The notes beneath the pieces were generated by a model. That model searched no databases. It saw only the letters and a program-made list of their open reading frames with translations, and had not been told where the DNA came from. DNA of 45,850 bases from a virus (lineage: Duplodnaviria > Heunggongvirae > Uroviricota > Caudoviricetes). The position numbers and the translations under genes were made by a program. The stretch lies in the IMG/VR virus record IMGVR_UViG_650377933_000003; one strand, written 5' to 3'. Below, in pieces: positions 2,304 to 23,076 of the stretch; the first letter of the stretch is position 1, and each line of letters starts with the position of its first letter.

Positions 2304-2619
2304 TATAATAAACTTACTTTTTTATCATTTTTCCACTTTAACAACATTTTGCTCCACTTTTCCACGACCAAACAACTTGAAATCTGGTTAAAATAACACG
2401 CAACACTATTCTTCTTCCTTGAGTCCGCCCGGAACTCGAAAAACAAACCGAGTTAAAGCTATTTTTCACAAAATCGATTTTGGGTCTCACCAAAATTACG
2501 GGGTTGCATACGCATTCGTTTATTTTCGAACGTGTACATACAAACATGCACAAAAATAATCAAAATTATTTTCTGAGATGCATTATGATATGAACACCAA
2601 TTTCGTATAGAGTCTCACT

Positions 2620-3210
2620 ATGTCTCGAATTTTTGCTTACTGTCGGATATCAACGCTGGATCAGACCACCGAAAATCAACGCCGGGAAATCGAAAGTGCA
2701 GGTTTTAAAATCAAACCTCAGCAAATAATCGAAGAACACATTAGCGGCTCAGCAGCAACCAGTGAGCGTCCTGGTTTTAACCGGTTGCTTGCTCGCCTGA
2801 AATGTGGTGATCAATTGATTGTGACAAAACTGGATCGCCTTGGTTGTAATGCAATGGATATCAGGAAAACAGTGGAACAACTGACCGAAACAGGTATCAG
2901 AGTGCATTGCTTAGCATTGGGGGGCATTGACCTGACCAGTCCAACAGGAAAAATGATGATGCAAGTAATTTCAGCAGTCGCTGAATTTGAACGAGACCTT
3001 TTACTTGAACGCACTCATTCCGGGATAGTAAGAGCCCGGGGCGCAGGGAAACGTTTTGGTCGACCACCTGTGTTAAATGAAGAACAGAAACAGGTGGTAT
3101 TCGAACGGATTAAGTCAGGTGTAAGTATAAGTGCCATTGCCCGGGAATTCAAAACCTCGCGGCAAACCATTTTAAGAGCCAAAGCAAAACTTCAGACACC
3201 TGACATATAA
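2620..3210 (+). CDS. pin: Serine DNA invertase, Pin/Gin/Hin/Cin family
   Basis: 196 aa; N-terminal resolvase catalytic motif (YCRISTLDQ with the active-site Ser) and C-terminal HTH; matches recalled PinQ/PinE. Confidence 0.9.
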
Positions 3211-3437
3211 AAAATAATCTCGGTGTGAGATGCCTTACGTCTTCCAAGCCCCCTTCCTTGCCGTAAATGGAAAGATACATCTAATTATAGAATTTATATG
3301 TTTTACCCTACGGCAGTGCTGGCCATTCAATATCCTGTGCAGTTGACGTATCAACACGGTTCAGCAACACCCGATACTTCTTCCAGGCTTCCCGCAACGA
3401 GGTTTCTTCCTCCGTTGCATATACAGCTCACCTTTTT

Positions 3438-3737
3438 TCACCCACGATTAACCAACAGCCAGACCAGCAGACACGCCACCACCGGCACAGCAAAATCCAT
3501 CAGGCTTGCCACATCCCACGCGCGCGGATCAAAACCGCCCCACCACGGCATATTCATTCGCTTGCCATGCCCGAACATTTCAATCCAGCGATATTCTGCC
3601 TGGGTGTGTTCACGCGCAATGAAGAACGTACAACCGGCTATCGCCCCGTAAGCCCAGTTCCCGGTAAAAAGACCAACCAGTATCTGCGCAGCCACAGCAC
3701 AAAGCGCATGAAGGAAAGGTGTTATATCCATTTTCAT
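3438..3737 (-). CDS. Small hydrophobic predicted inner-membrane protein (about 99 aa)
   Basis: ORF 3438..3746 with two or three hydrophobic segments; the ORF-track first codon is TTG, first ATG is at 3737. No homolog recognised. Confidence 0.45.
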   Translation of the reverse strand: MKMDITPFLHALCAVAAQILVGLFTGNWAYGAIAGCTFFIAREHTQAEYRWIEMFGHGKRMNMPWWGGFDPRAWDVASLMDFAVPVVACLLVWLLVNRG

Positions 3738-3773
3738 CCTACCCAATAAAACGGGGCGCTCGGCCCCTTAATA

Positions 3774-4814
3774 TTATTTAGACGCAAGCGCCGCCTCAAT
3801 TGCAGATAATCTTTGTCTTAATTCTGCGTTTTCTTCTTCCAGTGCTGTTATTCTGTCGTCTGACTCTCTGGCTACCTGAACAAGCAAGCCAGTAACACCA
3901 GAATAATCTACTGTGTAATAACGTTCACCTTCTTCACCTTCCGATCCGCTTGCACCGTCCTGATATTTCATTGCGGAACCTACAACTTCTGGGATTGCTT
4001 CCAGAGCTTCCTGTGCAATGACACCAGCATAGGGCATACCGTTTTCTTTAAGCGTGTATGTATAGCCGTTCATTTTACGGATGCGGTCGGTTGCATTATC
4101 GATCACCTGAATGTTGTCTTTCAGATCCCGGTCGGAATGCTGGTTAAATGCGGTGGCATGACATGCACCATTAACGCTTAACATATAGGTGTTATCGGTA
4201 TTTTTCTGCGCATAGAACATATAAGCGCCACCATCAACACCGACTTCATAAACAACAGGACGGCTGGTGTTGCCCCACAATTGAGCAGTAACACCAGCAT
4301 AAGCGGTTCCCTGTGTGTTTAATGTCATGGTTGACCCATGATTGGCATATTTGATCTGTAATGTGTCGGTGTAATCAAATTTAATAAGCGCGTTACTTCC
4401 ACGCTTGCTGTATGACATAAGGCAGTTACCCATTTTGAGGTATCCGCTGTCACCGGGAAAAATCATCGTACCGCCATAAAGGTTGGTAAAGTCCCAGCAA
4501 ATGTTTGTCCCGTTATCGTTCAGGTTAAGGCGCGCCATTGCGTTACCTGGACTGTCTATCCATTTTTTGAGGTATAGTTCGCAATACGCATCCTCAACAC
4601 CTGCCGTCCTGTGAGTTGAGCGGAGTTTTCTCCCAAATATAGCTCCGCTAGTTGGCAATACCTGCTGATACCATGAAGCAGACCAGTCACCAACGATTTC
4701 ATCTTTGCTGTCTACATATAATTTTGTTGCGTAGCTTCCTTGATCGTTTTTTAATTTGCTAACGTCGGATTTTAGCGTTTTGATGTCATCAGGAATTACT
4801 GTCGATGTAGCCAT
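3774..4814 (-). CDS. Tail fibre/tailspike-like protein with C-terminal intramolecular-chaperone (peptidase S74-like) domain
   Basis: 346 aa; C-terminal segment ...NQHSDRDLKDNIQVID...GERYYTVDYSGVTGLL...ITALEEENAELRQRLSAIEA resembles the autocleaving chaperone domain of endosialidase-type and L-shaped tail fibres. Confidence 0.7.
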   Translation of the reverse strand: MATSTVIPDDIKTLKSDVSKLKNDQGSYATKLYVDSKDEIVGDWSASWYQQVLPTSGAIFGRKLRSTHRTAGVEDAYCELYLKKWIDSPGNAMARLNLNDNGTNICWDFTNLYGGTMIFPGDSGYLKMGNCLMSYSKRGSNALIKFDYTDTLQIKYANHGSTMTLNTQGTAYAGVTAQLWGNTSRPVVYEVGVDGGAYMFYAQKNTDNTYMLSVNGACHATAFNQHSDRDLKDNIQVIDNATDRIRKMNGYTYTLKENGMPYAGVIAQEALEAIPEVVGSAMKYQDGASGSEGEEGERYYTVDYSGVTGLLVQVARESDDRITALEEENAELRQRLSAIEAALASK

Positions 4815-4823
4815 TTTTCTTCC

Positions 4824-5105
4824 TCACATCCAGCCACGAAGTTGATGCTCAACAGCAACCACGTATTCATCGAATAATGACGATATTTGCGAATCATTAA
4901 TGATGCGCACGTTTACAAAATATCCGTCTTCCTTAACACATACCGGTTCGCCATCTTCAGTCAGTTCTCCGGTTTCTTTGTACACGTTACCTATCACGTC
5001 AATAAGAATATCATCCTGCATCGACTCGTCATCATAATAGCCAGTGCTATCCATAAAGGCCGAAAAGTCGGCCCTGTCGGCAAATTTGAGTGTTAAATCT
5101 TTCAT
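4824..5105 (-). CDS. Acidic hypothetical protein (93 aa) between the two fibre genes
   Basis: ORF whose start overlaps the stop of the upstream Stf gene; Asp/Glu-rich; no homolog recognised. Confidence 0.35.
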   Translation of the reverse strand: MKDLTLKFADRADFSAFMDSTGYYDDESMQDDILIDVIGNVYKETGELTEDGEPVCVKEDGYFVNVRIINDSQISSLFDEYVVAVEHQLRGWM

Positions 5106-7477
5106 TAGATTGACTCCCCCACCTGAGCATCAGTCAATGCCTTGTGCCATATTCTGAAATTCCTGACATGACCAAATAAATGACGTAACCCGGCTGTAGT
5201 CTGGCCTCCAATACGGATAATTGCGGTGTTCTGAATACAGGACCATGTGGTTTTTGTTTCGCTGGATATATGCCCGTTACTTACTGAGCACGTAGACTGC
5301 TCTGACTTTACACGCATCCCCATAACCATTTTTTCAAGCGATGCGTTTTCGTTTACCCGTCTGTTAGCTCCTCCAATATCGCAATAAGGAAATCCGTCGT
5401 AATCTGTTGAACGACCGAAGCCAAGAATAATAGCCGCTCCGGTTTGATGACCGCCGGTATCAAAAACACGTGGCGCTGCATTTGGCGTTTTATACCAGTT
5501 CTTATGTACCTCACAAAGAACCGTAAAAGGAAGATTATAAAGATTATTCTTAATTGGAACTGTAACTATATCGCTTGCGCGGGTCGCCGCCGTCGCTCCT
5601 GATATAATAAAAGATGATACACAAGGCCCATCTTCTACTTGTGGGGTGGCCAGATAAATATAGTCACCAGATACGGTTGCCCCGCTCTGCTTAGGAGAAT
5701 ACTGTATCTGAGAGCCTATTTTTAACTCCCCATCAATTGTCTGAATTGTTGCCTCTGCAAAAATCCATCCGGTAGCTTCGTCCTTTCTGACTCTCGCTGT
5801 AATCCTTGAGGCAGCACCGCCTGTCATATTAATTTCAAGCGTTTGTGTATCAATATACGCATCACCAAGAAAAGTTGTTGCGCTACCGTCATATTTATCA
5901 AACCGGATACGCAACCTTACCTGCAGTTCTGTTTTAAAACGACATGAGGTTGTCACGTGTTTATTATCGCCTGAGACATCAACTGACTTTGTTGCAGCAA
6001 TTGATGCCATATTAATGGCTGAGGTTTGCCCAATCAGAGAATCGTTGCAGACAAACTTTCCATAGGTAAAACCAAAATTATCCGTCCCTGTTTCGGGCAC
6101 ATCCATATTTGACGATCGCCCCCAACTGGCAGGGCTTTCCGAATTGAGCATGTAGTTTGTTCTTTGCCCCTCAATAAGCAGGCCATCACGTTCAAATCGT
6201 GGCTCGTCAATGGCAGCCTCTGTCAGCACACCAGATTTGTTAATATAGGTTGCTTTCGATGCACGTTTAAACTTAACAATCTTGTCGCCAGGCATCGTTA
6301 TTTCATCGTCACCAATAACAATTTTTTTATATGACGGCGAAAAGCCCGTAATCATATCCAGCGAATCGTTAAACGGTATCCACACATCAGGCAGCGGCTG
6401 TAAGACATATTTATACGGCTCCGCAGCCTGGCTTGCGTACTCTCTGGCTGCATCTTCGCTTGCTTTAGCTGCCGTCTGGCTTGCTGCCGATGCTTTCGCT
6501 GAGTTCGCAGCCGCTGTTTCGCTCACCTTTGCGTTGGTTTCACTGGTTTTTGCTGCTTTTTGACTGTTAGCTGATGCAGTGGCAGAAGCAGCCGCCGCGC
6601 TTGCAGAACTGGCTGCGGCACTCTCGCTTTGAGCCGCTGCATCCTGACTGCTTTTCGCCGCAGTTTCACTGGCTTTGGCATTCGTTTCGCTGGTCTTCGC
6701 TGCCGTCTGGCTGGACTTTGCGTTAGTTTCACTCGTCTTCGCAGCTTTCTGGCTGTTAGCCGTAGCAGTTGCTGATCCAGCTGCTGAAGTCGCAGAACCG
6801 GCTGCCGCGCTCTCGCTTTGGGCTGCTGCAACCTGGCTGTTTTTTGCCGCAGTTTCACTGGCTTTAGCATTCGTTTCGCTGGTCTTCGCTGCCGTCTGGC
6901 TGGACTTTGCGTTGGTTTCGCTCGTCTTTGCGGCTGTCTCGCTATTTTTCGCGTTGGTTTCTGATTTTTTAGCTGCTGTTGCGGAGTTTGCCGATGCAGT
7001 CTGCGAGGCCGCTGCCGCCTGTGCGCTGTTAGCTGCATTCGTTTCTGAGGTTTTCGCCGCGTTCTTCGATGATGCCGCTGCAGTTTCGGATTTCTTTGCC
7101 GCCGCTGCGCTCTGAGAGGCGGCTTCAGCGTTGCGTGCCGCTTCTTCCACCATTTCCTCAAAACGACGCAATGCCTCCGGCATGACATCATCTTCCGTCA
7201 TGGCACCGAGAAAATCATTCAGCGTACCTGGTCTGGAACCTTCATAGACGGTAATGGTTCCGGCATGTGAAGGCGGAAAACCTTCAACAAGCAGGATAAC
7301 GCTGTACTGGCCATACTCAACATCCATGCTGTAACGCCCGGCTTCATCCGGATTTTCAGAGGCCACCGTGTTCACCAGTACCGTGGTGCTGTTACGCTTT
7401 GCCTTCAGTTGAATAGTGCAGTTCTGTATTGGTTTTCCCGCACCATCTTTCAGCACACCTGAAATCTGTACTGCCAT
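5105..7477 (-). CDS. stf: Side tail fibre, lambda Stf-like N-terminus with a long Ala/Ser/Thr-rich repeat region and a distinct C-terminal domain
   Basis: From the ATG at 7477 (GGAG upstream) the protein starts MAVQISGVLKDGAGKPIQNCTIQLKAKRNSTTV..., matching the recalled lambda Stf N-terminus; residues about 110-360 are K-x-S-E-T-N-A-K-like repeats. Confidence 0.85.
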   Translation of the reverse strand: MAVQISGVLKDGAGKPIQNCTIQLKAKRNSTTVLVNTVASENPDEAGRYSMDVEYGQYSVILLVEGFPPSHAGTITVYEGSRPGTLNDFLGAMTEDDVMPEALRRFEEMVEEAARNAEAASQSAAAAKKSETAAASSKNAAKTSETNAANSAQAAAASQTASANSATAAKKSETNAKNSETAAKTSETNAKSSQTAAKTSETNAKASETAAKNSQVAAAQSESAAAGSATSAAGSATATANSQKAAKTSETNAKSSQTAAKTSETNAKASETAAKSSQDAAAQSESAAASSASAAAASATASANSQKAAKTSETNAKVSETAAANSAKASAASQTAAKASEDAAREYASQAAEPYKYVLQPLPDVWIPFNDSLDMITGFSPSYKKIVIGDDEITMPGDKIVKFKRASKATYINKSGVLTEAAIDEPRFERDGLLIEGQRTNYMLNSESPASWGRSSNMDVPETGTDNFGFTYGKFVCNDSLIGQTSAINMASIAATKSVDVSGDNKHVTTSCRFKTELQVRLRIRFDKYDGSATTFLGDAYIDTQTLEINMTGGAASRITARVRKDEATGWIFAEATIQTIDGELKIGSQIQYSPKQSGATVSGDYIYLATPQVEDGPCVSSFIISGATAATRASDIVTVPIKNNLYNLPFTVLCEVHKNWYKTPNAAPRVFDTGGHQTGAAIILGFGRSTDYDGFPYCDIGGANRRVNENASLEKMVMGMRVKSEQSTCSVSNGHISSETKTTWSCIQNTAIIRIGGQTTAGLRHLFGHVRNFRIWHKALTDAQVGESI
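6400..7160. repeat. Degenerate in-frame tandem repeats inside stf (K-[STN]-S-E-T-N-A-K units)
   Basis: Recurrent DNA strings such as gctggtcttcgctgccgtctggctggactttgcgtt and matching peptide periodicity; also generates long spurious ORFs on the + strand. Confidence 0.7.
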
Positions 7478-7537
7478 ACTCACTCCACAAATAAAAAAGG
7501 CGCCATTTCTGGCGCCCGTATTGGGGTTATAAATATT

Positions 7538-10500
7538 TCAACGGATACTGATACCGGAAGCAGCTTTTTTGGTCACAATCACCGTACAGTCTGTGATGTT
7601 ACCTGCGCCCTGATTGCCTTTCTGGAAAATCTTAAACTCCAGAGTGACGTTACCACCACCACTCGGCATATCAATAACCGCACTGTAACTACCGGGAATG
7701 GCTCCTTTAGTTTCTCTGGATGCGATTAATACGCCATTTTTGCGAACTTCAAAACCATAACCCGTGTATCGCGTACCTCCCGGGTTATTACCGCTCCCCG
7801 GATCGTCATACGCCACACCGTTAAAAATAATGGGCGGAATAATGATTTGGCGGTCAAAGTTATGATCATCGTAAATGGTGACTGTAACCGTCCCGTTTGG
7901 TGTTTCCGTGTTACCCCACGTACCAGCCTTTTTCGGGAATGATTTGGATACAGTTTTAACGAAGTCACCTCTGACCTGGTTCGCCTCCAGCATGCCCTTA
8001 ATCGTACAGTTTTCATTTACCGTGACATTATTGAGCGTCCCGGAGTTCGCATTCACGTTACCGCTGATATCGGCATTTTTCGCCGTCAGCCGCCCGTCCG
8101 GTGTCAGGGAAAATACCGGAGGATTGCCGCCACTGGTAATGGTGGGAGCCGTCAGATACTTCAGGAACACTTCGTTCATGAATATCTGGTTGCCCTGCGC
8201 CACAAACATCGGCGTTTCATTCCCGTTTGCCGGGTCAATAAACGCGATACGGTTAGCGGCAACCAGGAACTGGCTCAGTTTGCCTTCCTCCGTATCCTCC
8301 ATGCTGAGGCCAAGCCCCGCGACATAATGTTTGCCGTCTTTGGTCTGCTCAATTTTGACGCCCCACATGGCATTCCATTTATCGTTGGCGTCCTTCCACT
8401 CTTTCGAAAACTCCTCCAGTCTGCTGGCGTTATCCTCCGTCAGCTCGAGTTTTTCCAGCAGCTCCTTGCCGAGATGGGATTCGGTTATCTTGCCTTTGAA
8501 AAAATCCAGGTAACCTTCCGCATCATCGCTCGCCCGACCGACGGCCTCCACGAATGCCGATTTGCCAACGGTGTTCACACTGCGGATATAAAAGTAATAA
8601 TCATGGCCCGGTTTGATATTGATACTGGCGGCTATCCAGTACAGCGCCGTACCAAGATAGCGGGCTGTGGTTTCAACCTGCCTGATATCGGTAATCCGCT
8701 TTTCCGAGAACCAGAACTCAAACTGTACCGTCGGATCATAAACCGCAAGATGCGGCGTGGCGGTTATCTGAAAATAGCCCGGCGTCAGCTCAATCCGCGA
8801 TGGTGCTGCCGGTGCGGCAATCCGGAACGATACCGACGCCGGATCGCCCTGCTGCCCCCACGCATTTACCGCCCGGACTGTCAGACTGTAATTTCCCAGA
8901 GCCAGCTGCCTGAAGCGGTATGTGGTTTCCGTCGTCCGGGCCGTGCTGACCAGCCGCTCACTGCCGTCATCCGCTGCCACGGTCAGGCGAAGCATAAAGC
9001 TCACGCCCTTCACCACCTTCGGCGTATCCCAGCGCGCCAGCACCTGGTATTCCCCGCTGTCTGCGGTGACTTCGGCGGTCAGGTGCTGCACCGCTGGCGG
9101 CGTGACACCATTCACCGTGCCGCTCTGGTCGCCGTCAAAGTGCGCCCCGTTATCCACGATGGCTTCTTTTTCCGGTACATGCTGCACGGCAGTGATGGCA
9201 TACGTGCCGTCATCGTTCTCACGGATACTCACACAGCGGAACAGGCGCTGACGCAACGTCGGCAACTTCAGCCCCCACACACTGTATTCTGCAACGCCGT
9301 CAGGAACCCGATTCACTTTCACCTTAAGTCCGTCGGTGACGGACTGAACCTCCACGCTGACCGGATTACCACTTCCGTCAACCAGGCTTATCAGCGTGGT
9401 ACCGGAGGATGGCAGCGTGATTTCACGGTCGAGCGTCAGCGTCCGGGTCTGGCTGTTCACCGCCAGCACGCGACCACCGGTGCTGATACCGGCATAGTCA
9501 TCATCGCAGATTTCAATGACATCGCCCGGTACATGGCGAAGCCCTTCAGCACCCACGCTGAAATCCACGGTCTGCGTCTCCAGCAGTTCCGTTTTAATCA
9601 GCCACAGCCCGGCGCGGTGTGCCTGCCCCCGGCTGGTACAGCCAAAGGCATCCATCTTCGTGACATTACGACCGTAACGGGCAATGGCCTGCGTATCCTC
9701 CACAAGCTCTGTCGCCGTCTCCCAGCCGTTGTTCGGGTCAATCCAGTTCACCTCAACGGCATTATGGCGGTCCTTCAGGGCGCTGAAGCTGTAGCGGAAC
9801 GGCGCGCCATCATCCGGCATCACCACATTACTGCGGTTATAGGTCCACACCTTATCTGATGGTCGGTCCTGCACGAACGTCAGCGTCTGCCCGTTCCATA
9901 CCGGCATACAGCGCATCGCCGAGCAGAAATCACTGAGCACATCCCACGCCTTACGCTGCGTGGTCAGCCAGGCATTACAGGTGATGCGCGGCTCCGTGCC
10001 GCCAAAGCCGTCCGGCACCGACTGGTCGCAGTACTGGCCGATGACATACAGCGCCCATTTATCCACATCCGACGCACCAAGACGTTTTCCCATGCCGTAG
10101 CGCGGATGGGTCAGCATATCCCACAGACACCAGGCCATGTTGTTGCTGTATGCTGGCTTAAACGTTCCGTCCCAGATACCGCTGTATTGTCGCGTCTGCG
10201 GGTTATAGTTCGACGGCACCTGCAGAATGCGCCCGCGAAGATGATAATTACGACTCACCTGCTGGCTGCCGAACTGTTCCGAGTCCACCTGCACGCCGAC
10301 CAGTGCCGTGTTCGGGTAGCACTGTTTCACATCGATGATTTCGGTGTATGACGACCAGAGCGTTTTGTTCTGCAGCTGGTCTGTGGTGCTGTCCGGTGTC
10401 ATCCTGCGCATCCGGATATTAAACGGGCGCGGCGGCAGGTTACCCACCACCACCGATGCCAGATACTGTGAGGTGGTTTTGCCTTTAATGGTGATGTCTT

Positions 10501-10951
10501 TTTCCGTCACCCAGCCACCGTTACGCTGTATCTGAACCAGCAGGCGGACTTCCGACGGATTCCGGTCCCCCTTTGAGGTGGTTTCCACCAGTGCCTGCAC
10601 ACCGAAGGTAAAGCGCAGACGGTCGATGTTTGCAGACGTGATGGTCCGGGTAATCGGCGTGTCGTACTTCACTTCCGTACCCAGCACCGTCTCGGAGCCG
10701 GAGGATTCAAATCCCTCCGGCGGTGTCTGCTCCTGCTCACCTGCCCGGAAAACCACCGTGACACCGGAGATATTGGTATTCCCCTCACTGTCCAGCACTG
10801 GCGTACTGTTCAGCAGCACACTTTTTAATCCGTCCACCGGACCTTCAATCGGCCCTTCACTGATGGCGTCTATCACGCTCAGCATCTGCGTGGACTTCAG
10901 GTTGTCCTTCGCTTCGCGCGGGGTATGCCCCTTACTGCTGCCTTTACCCAT
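7538..10951 (-). CDS. J: Tail tip / host-specificity protein J (central tail fibre)
   Basis: 1137 aa; N-terminus [22 protein letters not shown]... and overall length match recalled lambda J (about 1132 aa). Confidence 0.95.
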
Positions 10952-21567: not shown

Positions 21568-23076
21568 TTATTCTTCGGACTGGTCGTCGGTGTGCTGCGG
21601 CTCCTGTCGTTTCGTTGCGGCACTGCTGCCTCCTTTATCACTGGCCGGATCGGTATCAAATACCAGATCCAGCTTGCGGTTTTCATCAATTTCTGCCTTG
21701 CGCCGACGTTTGACATCATCCGGATTACGACCACCTGCACGTACCCAGTCTGATTCTGTCGCCGCTCCACCACGAATCTGAATTTTCCAGGCCTCAGCCT
21801 CCTTAACAGGGTCAATCCACGGCATCACCGGTCCGGAATACACCGCGGTATACAGTGAAGAACGGTCAAGATCGCGGGGTAGCCTGATAACACCGGATGC
21901 CACAGCCTGTTTCAGCCAGGCACGATACATCGGGCGGGTGACGGCACCAATAAACCAGTCCTGCAGGATCAGGTAGCCATCAGTGGATTCAACCAGCTCC
22001 TGACGCTGGGCGCTGTAAGTGCCGTTATAGTTGCGCGCTGTACTGGAAAAACTCAGACGACTGCCCGCCGCCACGGCACGCAACTGACCATTACGAAAAG
22101 TTTCAAGGTTAGGATTGGGGCGATCCGACTTCACCATTCCGATTTCTTCGCCGGGTTTCAGATCGTCGTAAATAATGCCTGGCTGAATGGTAAGCTCGCG
22201 TTCATTCTCCTTGCTGTCATTACCATCCGTTTCATAGCTCTGTCCGTCGCCTTTGCGGATGTACATCCCCAGAGCAGCAGCGATCCTTGCTGCAGTCAGC
22301 TCAGAATCTTCATATTCTTTCAGGGCACTGAGGCGGATCAGCACACCGGACAATAAAGACGTCCCGCGCATCTGGTGCAGACGGCGAACAAATTTAAGAT
22401 GCAGCATTCGCTCTGCATCCACTTCTTTGGTTTCCATCTGCCGTCCGGATACAGGACGACTTTTATACACCAGATATTTTTCGGGACGCCCCCAGTCATC
22501 AACAAACACGCCCTGATTCAGCCTGTTGCTCTCATCACTGGTCATGGGAATAAAGTCTGGCTCGAGTGCCTCCAGCCAGAAATGAACACCGGCAGAAGGC
22601 GTCAGGCTGTTTATGCGCCCGGAAACCATCTGGGCAAACACCTCACCATCGCGCAGCCAGGTACGCAGCATCAGACGTTCCAGCATCGGACGGGTAAACT
22701 GCCCGGTAACTTCCGGACTGACAGACCATTCACTCCATCGGGTGCGTATCTCCGCTGCCAGATCACGGGCAATGGCCCCATTGCGTAATACCGGATGTGG
22801 CTCGACAATAATCCCGTTTTTCCCCACCACCCGTTCTTCCAGCTTGTCAAATACACCAATGACCAGATCGTGGTTGTTATCAAGGTAACGGGCCTGCTCA
22901 CGTAACGACACGGCCCCGTAGAGGCTTAACTGGTCGGCAGTTCGGTTTTCCCGCCGGGCTTTGTGTGTCCGCGTCGTTTTTACGGCCTCATAAGCCTGGA
23001 TCACCGCCCGGGAACGCAGCCTTGCCGCTTTCCATCCTGGTGAAAAAACGCCAATCACATCATCAAGAATTGCCAT
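21568..23076 (-). CDS. Portal protein
   Basis: About 500 aa portal-sized protein between W-like and protease/capsid; start ATG at 23076 overlaps the W-like stop (TGATG). Confidence 0.85.
   Translation of the reverse strand: MAILDDVIGVFSPGWKAARLRSRAVIQAYEAVKTTRTHKARRENRTADQLSLYGAVSLREQARYLDNNHDLVIGVFDKLEERVVGKNGIIVEPHPVLRNGAIARDLAAEIRTRWSEWSVSPEVTGQFTRPMLERLMLRTWLRDGEVFAQMVSGRINSLTPSAGVHFWLEALEPDFIPMTSDESNRLNQGVFVDDWGRPEKYLVYKSRPVSGRQMETKEVDAERMLHLKFVRRLHQMRGTSLLSGVLIRLSALKEYEDSELTAARIAAALGMYIRKGDGQSYETDGNDSKENERELTIQPGIIYDDLKPGEEIGMVKSDRPNPNLETFRNGQLRAVAAGSRLSFSSTARNYNGTYSAQRQELVESTDGYLILQDWFIGAVTRPMYRAWLKQAVASGVIRLPRDLDRSSLYTAVYSGPVMPWIDPVKEAEAWKIQIRGGAATESDWVRAGGRNPDDVKRRRKAEIDENRKLDLVFDTDPASDKGGSSAATKRQEPQHTDDQSEE

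Follow-up and report, generated by a model that had tools for sequence, protein, structure and literature searches.

Probable transposon relic around the pin gene

The window analysed in this study is the whole stretch of 45,850 nucleotides of IMG/VR virus record IMGVR_UViG_650377933_000003 (Caudoviricetes), which matches the chromosome of Escherichia coli strain LF82 at 99.9%. Next to a ydfK/ynaE-type gene (2070-2303, + strand), it carries the pin gene of the pinQ/pinR type (2620-3210, + strand), which codes for a tnpR-type small serine recombinase of 196 amino acid residues with the Resolvase and HTH_7 domains. The name of this gene in strain LF82, as given by the Prokaryotic Genome Annotation Pipeline (PGAP), is pinQ. 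An earlier description of the locus, made from the letters of the DNA alone (hereafter the sequence-only reading), had placed the gene product in the Pin/Gin/Cin family of DNA invertases and had found no recognisable invertible fibre segment next to it. The present analysis indicates that the 834-bp segment at 2420-3253 is very probably the relic of a replicative transposon of the Tn3 family, including the left terminal inverted repeat (IRL), a deleted transposase gene (tnpA), the resolution site (res), the resolvase gene (tnpR, here called pin) and the right terminal inverted repeat (IRR). The ydfK/ynaE-type gene forms the left flank of the insertion.

The window was scanned, ungapped and on both strands, with the 38-bp terminal repeat of intact relatives, GGGGTCCGCTTGGAAAACGGAAAATATCCCACGCTAAG, and exactly two places matched at 24 or more of the 38 positions, 2420 (+ strand) and 3219 (− strand). 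Matches of this quality are expected at 0.05 per window, and none of 300 random first-order Markov windows gave two. The IRL relic (2420-2457, + strand) matches at 24 of the 38 positions, and its alignment with the IRLs of intact elements runs on to about 2475. The IRR relic (3219-3253, − strand), the second match of at least 24/38, carries a 3-bp deletion and comes immediately behind the stop codon of pin; with the register fixed at this codon, 32 of 44 bases match the transposon of plasmid pRM10386-2 (p ~6e-9). Both orientation and position of the two relics are as expected for a left end upstream of res and a right end after the tnpR stop. Directly outside the end relics, the identical pentamer TTCCT is present at 2415-2419 and 3254-3258, forming the left and right copies of a target-site duplication, and TTCCT is found on both sides also in the divergent lineages 2H10 and L089.

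Relics of the res subsites are located between the IRL relic and the gene. Alignment to 66 non-redundant relatives placed site I at 2506-2533 and site II at 2547-2578, both on the + strand, and site III, consisting of two directly repeated half-sites, adjoins the gene at 2589-2608 (+ strand). A −10-like hexamer TATGAT (2584-2589, + strand; TATAAT in the family) lies between sites II and III and is the presumed pin promoter; a promoter inside res, within the tnpA-tnpR intergenic region, is also a feature of the intact relatives. The right half of site I, TTTCGAAC at 2524, retains all but one base while its left half and centre are decayed; the half-sites of site II are GCACAAAA and TTTCTGAG, for which the family has GTCCGAAA and TTTCGKAC; and TTTCGTAT of site III at 2601 shows one mismatch. 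Overall, 13 of 54 conserved columns are mismatched in the window, against a median of 1 and a maximum of 8 in the family, making this res the most decayed of all sequences compared, without an exact half-site. The idea that the left half of site I is missing, with a breakpoint at the crossover point, was dropped; the left half is present at the correct spacing in the less decayed L089 and 2H10.

The junction of the tnpA deletion falls approximately at 2480-2495, the homology on the IRL side ending at about 2478 and that on the res side beginning at about 2495. When the relic was aligned globally to the complete 3.8-kb transposon, a low gap-extension cost broke up the left arm into meaningless fragments, and that alignment was not used. 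The tnpA gene occupies about 3 kb in intact relatives, and tblastn with the 994-residue TnpA gave no match in the window at E<=1e-10, indicating that the element is a defective derivative and not an autonomous member of the family. Of the characters of Tn3-family elements, the window thus has end repeats of about 38 bp, a 5-bp duplication, and a small serine recombinase adjoining a multi-subsite res, and it lacks the DDE-type TnpA of about 1000 residues. Compared with Tn3-family elements of the divergent tnpA-res-tnpR type and with their defective or miniature derivatives, it keeps both ends, the duplication, res and tnpR. Unlike the intact elements, it has lost tnpA, its ends match at only 24/38, and its res half-sites are decayed, so that the element is immobile and without a substrate in cis.

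Intact relatives and their res sites

Among 75 loci encoding homologues of the window protein, at least 20 carry the homologue about 160 bp from a divergent, full-length open reading frame (ORF) of about 990 codons, the product of which is >84% identical to the L021 protein. The L021 protein (994 residues) contains the Tn3 transposase DDE domain (DDE_Tnp_Tn3, PF01526, E 3e-148). The intact relatives have the 38-bp GGGG...TAAG repeats at both ends, and six of them (L006, L020, L028, L030, L031 and L047) are flanked by perfect 5-bp target duplications. The minimal intact element, L006 on plasmid pRM10386-2, is 3814 bp in length with the duplication TTTTA; the five longer elements, with passenger genes, have perfect 5-bp duplications as well. 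Given the divergent TnpA, the 38-bp ends and the 5-bp duplications, the homologues are the TnpR resolvases of a group of Tn3-family transposons. These transposons are common on E. coli IncI/K/FIB plasmids. A Tn5403-like identity of this group is no more than a guess.

A half-site, TTTCG(G/T)AC, is repeated upstream of the recombinase gene in this group, with 229 exact copies within the 160 nucleotides upstream of the gene in 72 loci, compared with 0.048 per kb elsewhere, and the copies occupy fixed positions at −98, −74, −52 and −21. In a column alignment of the 66 non-redundant relatives, six half-sites with fixed spacing are conserved. The family consensus of site I is a 28-bp palindrome, ATGTCCGAAACCGATCGGTTTCGTACAC; about 13 nucleotides past it comes site II, a 32-bp inverted pair TGTCCGAAAG-TAAGTGAAATTAATTTCGTACA, followed by the hexamer TATAAT in a conserved column; and two direct half-sites (site III) adjoin the gene. 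The res of Tn3 and gamma-delta is composed of three subsites, of which site III adjoins tnpR, and by position and size the family array appears to resemble these sites I, II and III.

The central bases of site I, about 105 nucleotides upstream of the recombinase start, read CGGTCG in some relatives and the reverse complement CGACCG in others (L016-L087), so that an asymmetric centre exists in both polarities relative to tnpR. In some relatives (L033, L044, L064 and L068), the gene for a very distant Tn3-type TnpA, with 23-27% identity to that of L021, has the strand of tnpR and terminates immediately before res, as if the transposon were built differently or neighbouring elements had this resolvase/res module in common.

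Family placement of the recombinase

The window protein is identical (100%) to PinR of E. coli K-12, 99% identical to PinQ and 77-85% identical to TnpR of the intact Tn3-family transposons. To PinE of e14 its identity is 39%, whereas PinE itself shares 83.4% with Cin of P1 and 78.5% with Gin of D108, and 37.7% with phage PinR. The assignment to the Pin/Gin/Cin family thus fails. The nearest relatives, at 64-85% identity, are found in 2004 plasmid records and on many gamma- and beta-proteobacterial contigs. The sequences of gamma-delta and Tn3 resolvases are only distantly related to those of window-type TnpR (E ~1e-22), and among the sequence matches in PDB, Gin (105 bits) stands slightly above gamma-delta resolvase (83 bits).

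In common with Gin next to the G segment of Mu, Cin next to the C segment of P1 and PinE next to the P segment of e14, the window protein is a small serine recombinase of about 190 residues with a C-terminal helix-turn-helix, encoded beside tail-fibre genes. The Din family is, however, distinguished by high mutual identity of its recombinases (78-83%, against 38-39% for PinQ/PinR), by two inverted 26-bp sites flanking an adjacent segment, and by opposed alternative fibre or assembly cassettes within this segment; in the window the recombinase is far from this range, no such pair of sites flanks a segment, and the fibre ORFs are all on one strand. Invertases such as Hin and Gin also have a Fis-dependent enhancer within the 5' part of their genes. 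The cognate site of PinQ/PinR is a three-part res adjoining the gene and not a 26-bp inverted pair. Site I of the PinQ-related transposons shares with the Din crossover half-site the core AAACC: 9 of the 12 positions are the same in the family half-site ATGTCCGAAACC and in TTCTCCCAAACC of pix. The spacing from AAACC to GGTTT is 4 bp in the 28-bp family site I versus 2 bp in the 26-bp pix. The direction of the gene is also different, its 5' end facing away from the fibre genes in the window, while in e14 pinE abuts the P segment.

A phage collection contained the gene in 11 lambdoid phages only, all at 99-100% identity. In lambdoid phage HK225, a 'DNA invertase' (22148-22690) is 55% identical to PinE; lambdoid phages thus also harbour invertases that stand much nearer to the Din family than does PinQ/PinR. 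A 42,027-bp circular record filed as a plasmid (NZ_CP141086.1) encodes a Pin 100% identical to that of the window; this record could be the circular genome of a lambdoid phage, or a phage-plasmid. Contigs of metagenome bins labelled Alistipes, Draconibacterium and Caldithrix (L009, L012 and L013) carry PinR at 99-100% identity to that of E. coli and most likely are E. coli contaminants of these bins; the same may hold for the 'trematode' PinQ described previously (PMC12529663).

Search for crossover sites

The sequence-only reading had pointed to a string upstream of pin with partial resemblance to the core of gix-type crossover sites. The string CGAAAAACAAACCGAG is indeed present at 2437-2452, although as a gix/pix site it is at chance level: the core AAACCNNGGTTT with up to one mismatch was found once elsewhere in the window, against 1.96 expected, and the 26-bp gix/pix consensus with up to three mismatches was not found in the window. 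A search for inverted repeats over 12 kb around pin gave chance-level pairs only, while the same tool readily recovered the pix pair of e14. As in the sequence-only reading, no gix-type partner was found, and the 26-bp inverted repeats that had been proposed as a check are absent from the window in the consensus scans; yet the string does have an inverted partner of another kind. It lies within the IRL relic at 2420-2457, and its counterpart, ACACCGAG on the other strand, lies inside the IRR relic at 3219-3253. The 12-kb search missed these relics because their arms are too diverged for an 8-nucleotide seed to rank them. The inverted-repeat pair at this locus is therefore that of transposon ends around pin itself, not around a fibre segment.

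Distribution and orientation of the pin module

The order ydfJ'-ynfT-ydfK-pin, followed by tfa and stf on the opposite strand, is common to the window and the Qin prophage of K-12. Rac and the free phage mEp460_ev081 show the mirror image of the ynfT-ydfK-pin / tfa-stf order; in the phage, the pin module is located between the fibre genes and the int-xis genes. PinQ of Qin and PinR of Rac are products of the same gene as that of the window, with 99-100% identity and the same ynfT-ydfK-pin-tfa layout. Of 5426 complete E. coli genomes, 2677 carry the 1.5-kb module as a single collinear block, and no orientation variant of it was seen in this survey. In agreement, BLAST by Kirigo et al. detected inversions only in e14 and none in Qin or rac (PMC12529663).

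An artificial empty site, made by joining the left and right flanks with a single TTCCT, was used as a query. This query detected no uninterrupted ydfK-tfa junction, neither among the 5426 E. coli genomes nor among 50,697 phage records. In this phage lineage, the insertion is old and has become fixed.

A second phage-borne pin lineage, with 86% amino acid identity to that of the window, is present near prfC/dinI of E. coli GCA_910593615.1 (L089, 5001-5591 and flanks). This locus is a mosaic, of which the gene and res sites II and III show about 95% nucleotide identity to the transposon copy of an IncI/K plasmid, while its end relics, site I of res and the final codons have phage-type sequence. 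The mosaic suggests gene conversion between a plasmid transposon and a prophage relic, and thus the plasmid and phage pools meet and exchange DNA. A single variant of the Rac locus, in E. coli VE-T10 (L091, 4001-4711), lacks pinR and the tail genes by deletion, its homology to the window stopping at about 2610, at the border of res site III and the start of pin.

State of the pin gene

Inactivating changes in pin had been considered in the sequence-only reading; the ORF is intact, with neither a stop codon nor a frameshift. In comparison with tnpR of pRM10386-2, the ratio of replacement to silent substitution (dN/dS) is 0.15, the proportions of silent and replacement differences being 0.41 (pS) and 0.084 (pN). 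With 63% identity to the family repeat, the 38-nucleotide end relics come near the silent-site divergence; for the end relics and res alike, the rate of divergence is roughly that of silent sites. Replacement being slower than silent change while the ends and res are decayed, the coding sequence has been maintained as the cis-acting sites decayed. Relatives of 78-86% identity hardly differ in residues 167-186 of the helix-turn-helix. Aligned with PinE, the protein retains both the N-terminal Y-R-S motif, which surrounds the presumed catalytic serine, and LDRLG. These two motifs match named catalytic residues of resolvases. The product of pin probably remains an active DNA-binding recombinase that shares the specificity of its transposon relatives for TGTCCGAAACC-type half-sites, and it probably binds and regulates its own promoter region; such autoregulation is likely because remnants of sites II and III flank the −10 hexamer of the gene.

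Origin and possible functions of pin

Very probably, a Tn3-family transposon inserted between ydfK and tfa, a non-essential region, of an ancestral lambdoid phage of the Rac/Qin/mEp460 type, and pin is the resolvase gene of this transposon, which later lost tnpA while its ends and res decayed. A single decayed res without a partner would leave nothing to recombine in cis, so that no local rearrangement would be expected and the fibre genes would remain static, not being switched by this enzyme. Recombination at the present day would take place only in trans, on res of related transposons on incoming plasmids or on Din-type crossover sites elsewhere. With pin being tnpR of a transposon, its position beside the fibre genes is incidental, and most likely an invertible fibre segment never existed at this locus.

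Several observations weigh against this transposon origin. In gapped local alignment of the 38-bp repeat against 80-nucleotide chunks of the window, the IRR relic scored 13 and the best background 14; its significance derives from the ungapped scan, from the register set by the stop codon and from the duplication that matches. The flank is rich in C and T (CTTCTTCCTT), and the 5-bp match is therefore somewhat less surprising than 1 in 1024. As an empty site was not found in the genomes and phage records surveyed, the insertion event is inferred and not observed. The three subsites of res are putative, being assigned from conservation and from the likeness to Tn3/gamma-delta. Purifying selection on an enzyme without a substrate in cis needs a function in trans. 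Finally, the inversion activity reported for PinQ (PMC12529663) is not classical for a res-dependent resolvase.

According to one alternative, pin encodes a fibre-switch invertase of the Gin/Cin/Pin type, orphaned by loss of the adjacent segment with its alternative fibre C-termini and assembly genes. The location beside tail-fibre genes, the names pinQ/pinR with the product name 'DNA invertase', the evident exchange of the fibre module leaving a tfa remnant, and the slightly higher rank of Gin over gamma-delta resolvase in PDB agree with such a history. It is already contradicted, and we consider it highly improbable, because the protein has only about half the identity to PinE that is seen among PinE, Cin and Gin; the gene has its 5' end on the side remote from the fibre genes, the reverse of pinE in e14; no 26-bp site exists, while transposon ends and a target duplication bracket the gene and a res array precedes it; and the opposed cassette is missing also in K-12 Rac and Qin and in free phage mEp460_ev081, all with intact stf-tfa. 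The gene is thus orphaned, as had been suspected, not as a Din-family invertase deprived of its segment but as tnpR of a Tn3-family transposon. The sequence-only reading had also offered that pin inverts a different or larger segment of the prophage or chromosome, which would have to use non-gix sites. For such a switch one may point to the intact and conserved ORF, and a search based on gix could miss sites of this family, the half-site of which differs from gix. A scan with the family half-site, however, gave one isolated exact copy in the window (28653) and otherwise copies with one mismatch only in the res relic; no inverted repeat above chance lies within 12 kb; and the module is collinear in the 2677 genomes and in all sampled loci, in agreement with the published BLAST of Qin and rac (PMC12529663). 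We therefore give hardly any credence to a local switch, and the activity published for PinQ is in trans.

The transposon origin is compatible with two functions in trans, for each of which our support is tentative. For one of these, the maintained function would be the inversion of Din-type segments such as P of e14. The P segment is 1797 bp in length, and its inversion creates chimeric Stf proteins that block adsorption of phage T2; with PinQ over-produced, the share of inverted segments rose from about 30% to 88%, which required both the pix repeats and e14, and T2 induced pinQ (Kirigo et al., NAR 2025; PMC12529663). The 9/12 match between half-sites makes cross-recognition plausible, and inversion in trans would explain the purifying selection on pin. 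On the other hand, the P segment is locked in a pinE deletion despite the presence of pinQ and pinR (PMC12529663), and PinQ may not be the catalyst at native levels; the published effects are genetic, without recombination in vitro (PMC12529663); and the spacing of half-sites differs between 28-bp and 26-bp sites. In strain LF82, moreover, the icd locus is occupied by a lambda-like prophage with sitABCD and without pinE, stfP or stfE, and the window has no pix-like site, so that, as far as the icd locus and the window are concerned, the target in trans may be absent. The other function, perhaps possible to a similar extent, is that of a resolvase or repressor in trans for related transposons: by binding intact res on incoming plasmids, the protein could resolve cointegrates, repress tnpA and tnpR, or recombine the plasmid res with the prophage relic. 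The near-invariant helix-turn-helix of PinQ and transposon-borne TnpR, the frequency of related transposons on E. coli plasmids, and the L089 mosaic, with its plasmid-like gene between phage-type flanks, are consistent with this role; but homologous recombination alone could explain the mosaic, the signs are indirect, and the benefit to phage or host is unclear. Rather improbable, in our estimate, is a further step, in which the transposon resolvase captured by a phage, no longer tied to its decayed res, would have been retargeted and kept by selection as its DNA-binding domain, with specificity for TGTCCGAAACC-type half-sites, cross-recognises Din-type sites such as TTCTCCCAAACC. In that case the resolvase of a dead transposon in one prophage would drive a fibre-gene switch in another as an anti-phage defence, and nature would offer an example of how a resolvase becomes an invertase independent of accessory sites.

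By its anatomy, the locus belongs with the defective Tn3-family transposons and is not a Din-type switch. A false lead is thereby removed, no cryptic or broken host-range switch being present in this prophage, and the family assignment is corrected for a gene found in about half of the complete E. coli genomes and in free lambdoid phages. The pinQ/pinR gene itself is ordinary and already named, and its lack of an adjacent invertible segment was noted in 2025 (PMC12529663). The transposon origin appears not to have been described: the term 'Tn3' is absent from that report, the only study found to be devoted to the gene, and 'resolvase' and 'transposon' occur there only in general or reference contexts (PMC12529663). 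The gene is routinely annotated as 'DNA invertase' and has lately been put forward as the founding case of recombinase-activated phage defence. Should PinQ/PinR be a Tn3-family resolvase whose res has decayed, a specific mechanism is needed to explain the inversion of e14 reported in trans: either an enzyme made for a 28-bp site I with accessory sites also recognises 26-bp sites, or the effect is indirect, via PinE. The conserved res of the intact relatives, which in pRM10386-2 lies at about 46411-46570 of NZ_CP028124.1, provides a natural positive-control substrate.

Fibre genes and surroundings of the pin module

The window begins at its left end with a truncated ydfJ (1-1284, − strand), its prophage being inserted at the same ydfJ site as Qin, and ynfT lies between ydfJ and ydfK. 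On the other side of pin, all genes up to J are on the − strand: a remnant of tfaQ/tfaR (3308-3418), genes for proteins of 102 residues (3438-3746), 346 residues (3774-4814) and 93 residues (4824-5105), stf (792 residues; 5105-7483) and J (7538-10951). The 346-residue product is a fibre protein with a Peptidase_S74 chaperone domain. Two statements of the sequence-only reading, that the ORFs between pin and stf lie on one strand and that they include no opposed fibre cassette, were borne out, the same-strand tfaQ remnant being the sole additional feature; its view that the locus has no invertible fibre segment holds likewise, there being neither a gix/pix-like pair nor an opposed cassette.

The fibre module (3438-7483) lies outside the transposon relic. 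The tfaQ remnant consists of the last 36 codons, 34 of 36 residues matching residues 156-191 of K-12 TfaQ, and is annotated by PGAP as a pseudogene; it is the mark of a different fibre module recombined into the locus. Compared with stfQ-tfaQ of K-12, therefore, the window has tfa cut to its last 36 codons and another module instead, composed of Stf, the 93-residue protein, the S74 fibre and the 102-residue protein. Small proteins of 93 and about 100 residues after stf (3438-5105 in the window) recur in the icd prophage of LF82 (L092, 16983-17567), where they follow a truncated stf without the 346-residue S74 fibre. The families of this small-protein fibre module are phrog_1361, phrog_1443 and phrog_4563, and it is apparently a recurrent alternative fibre module.

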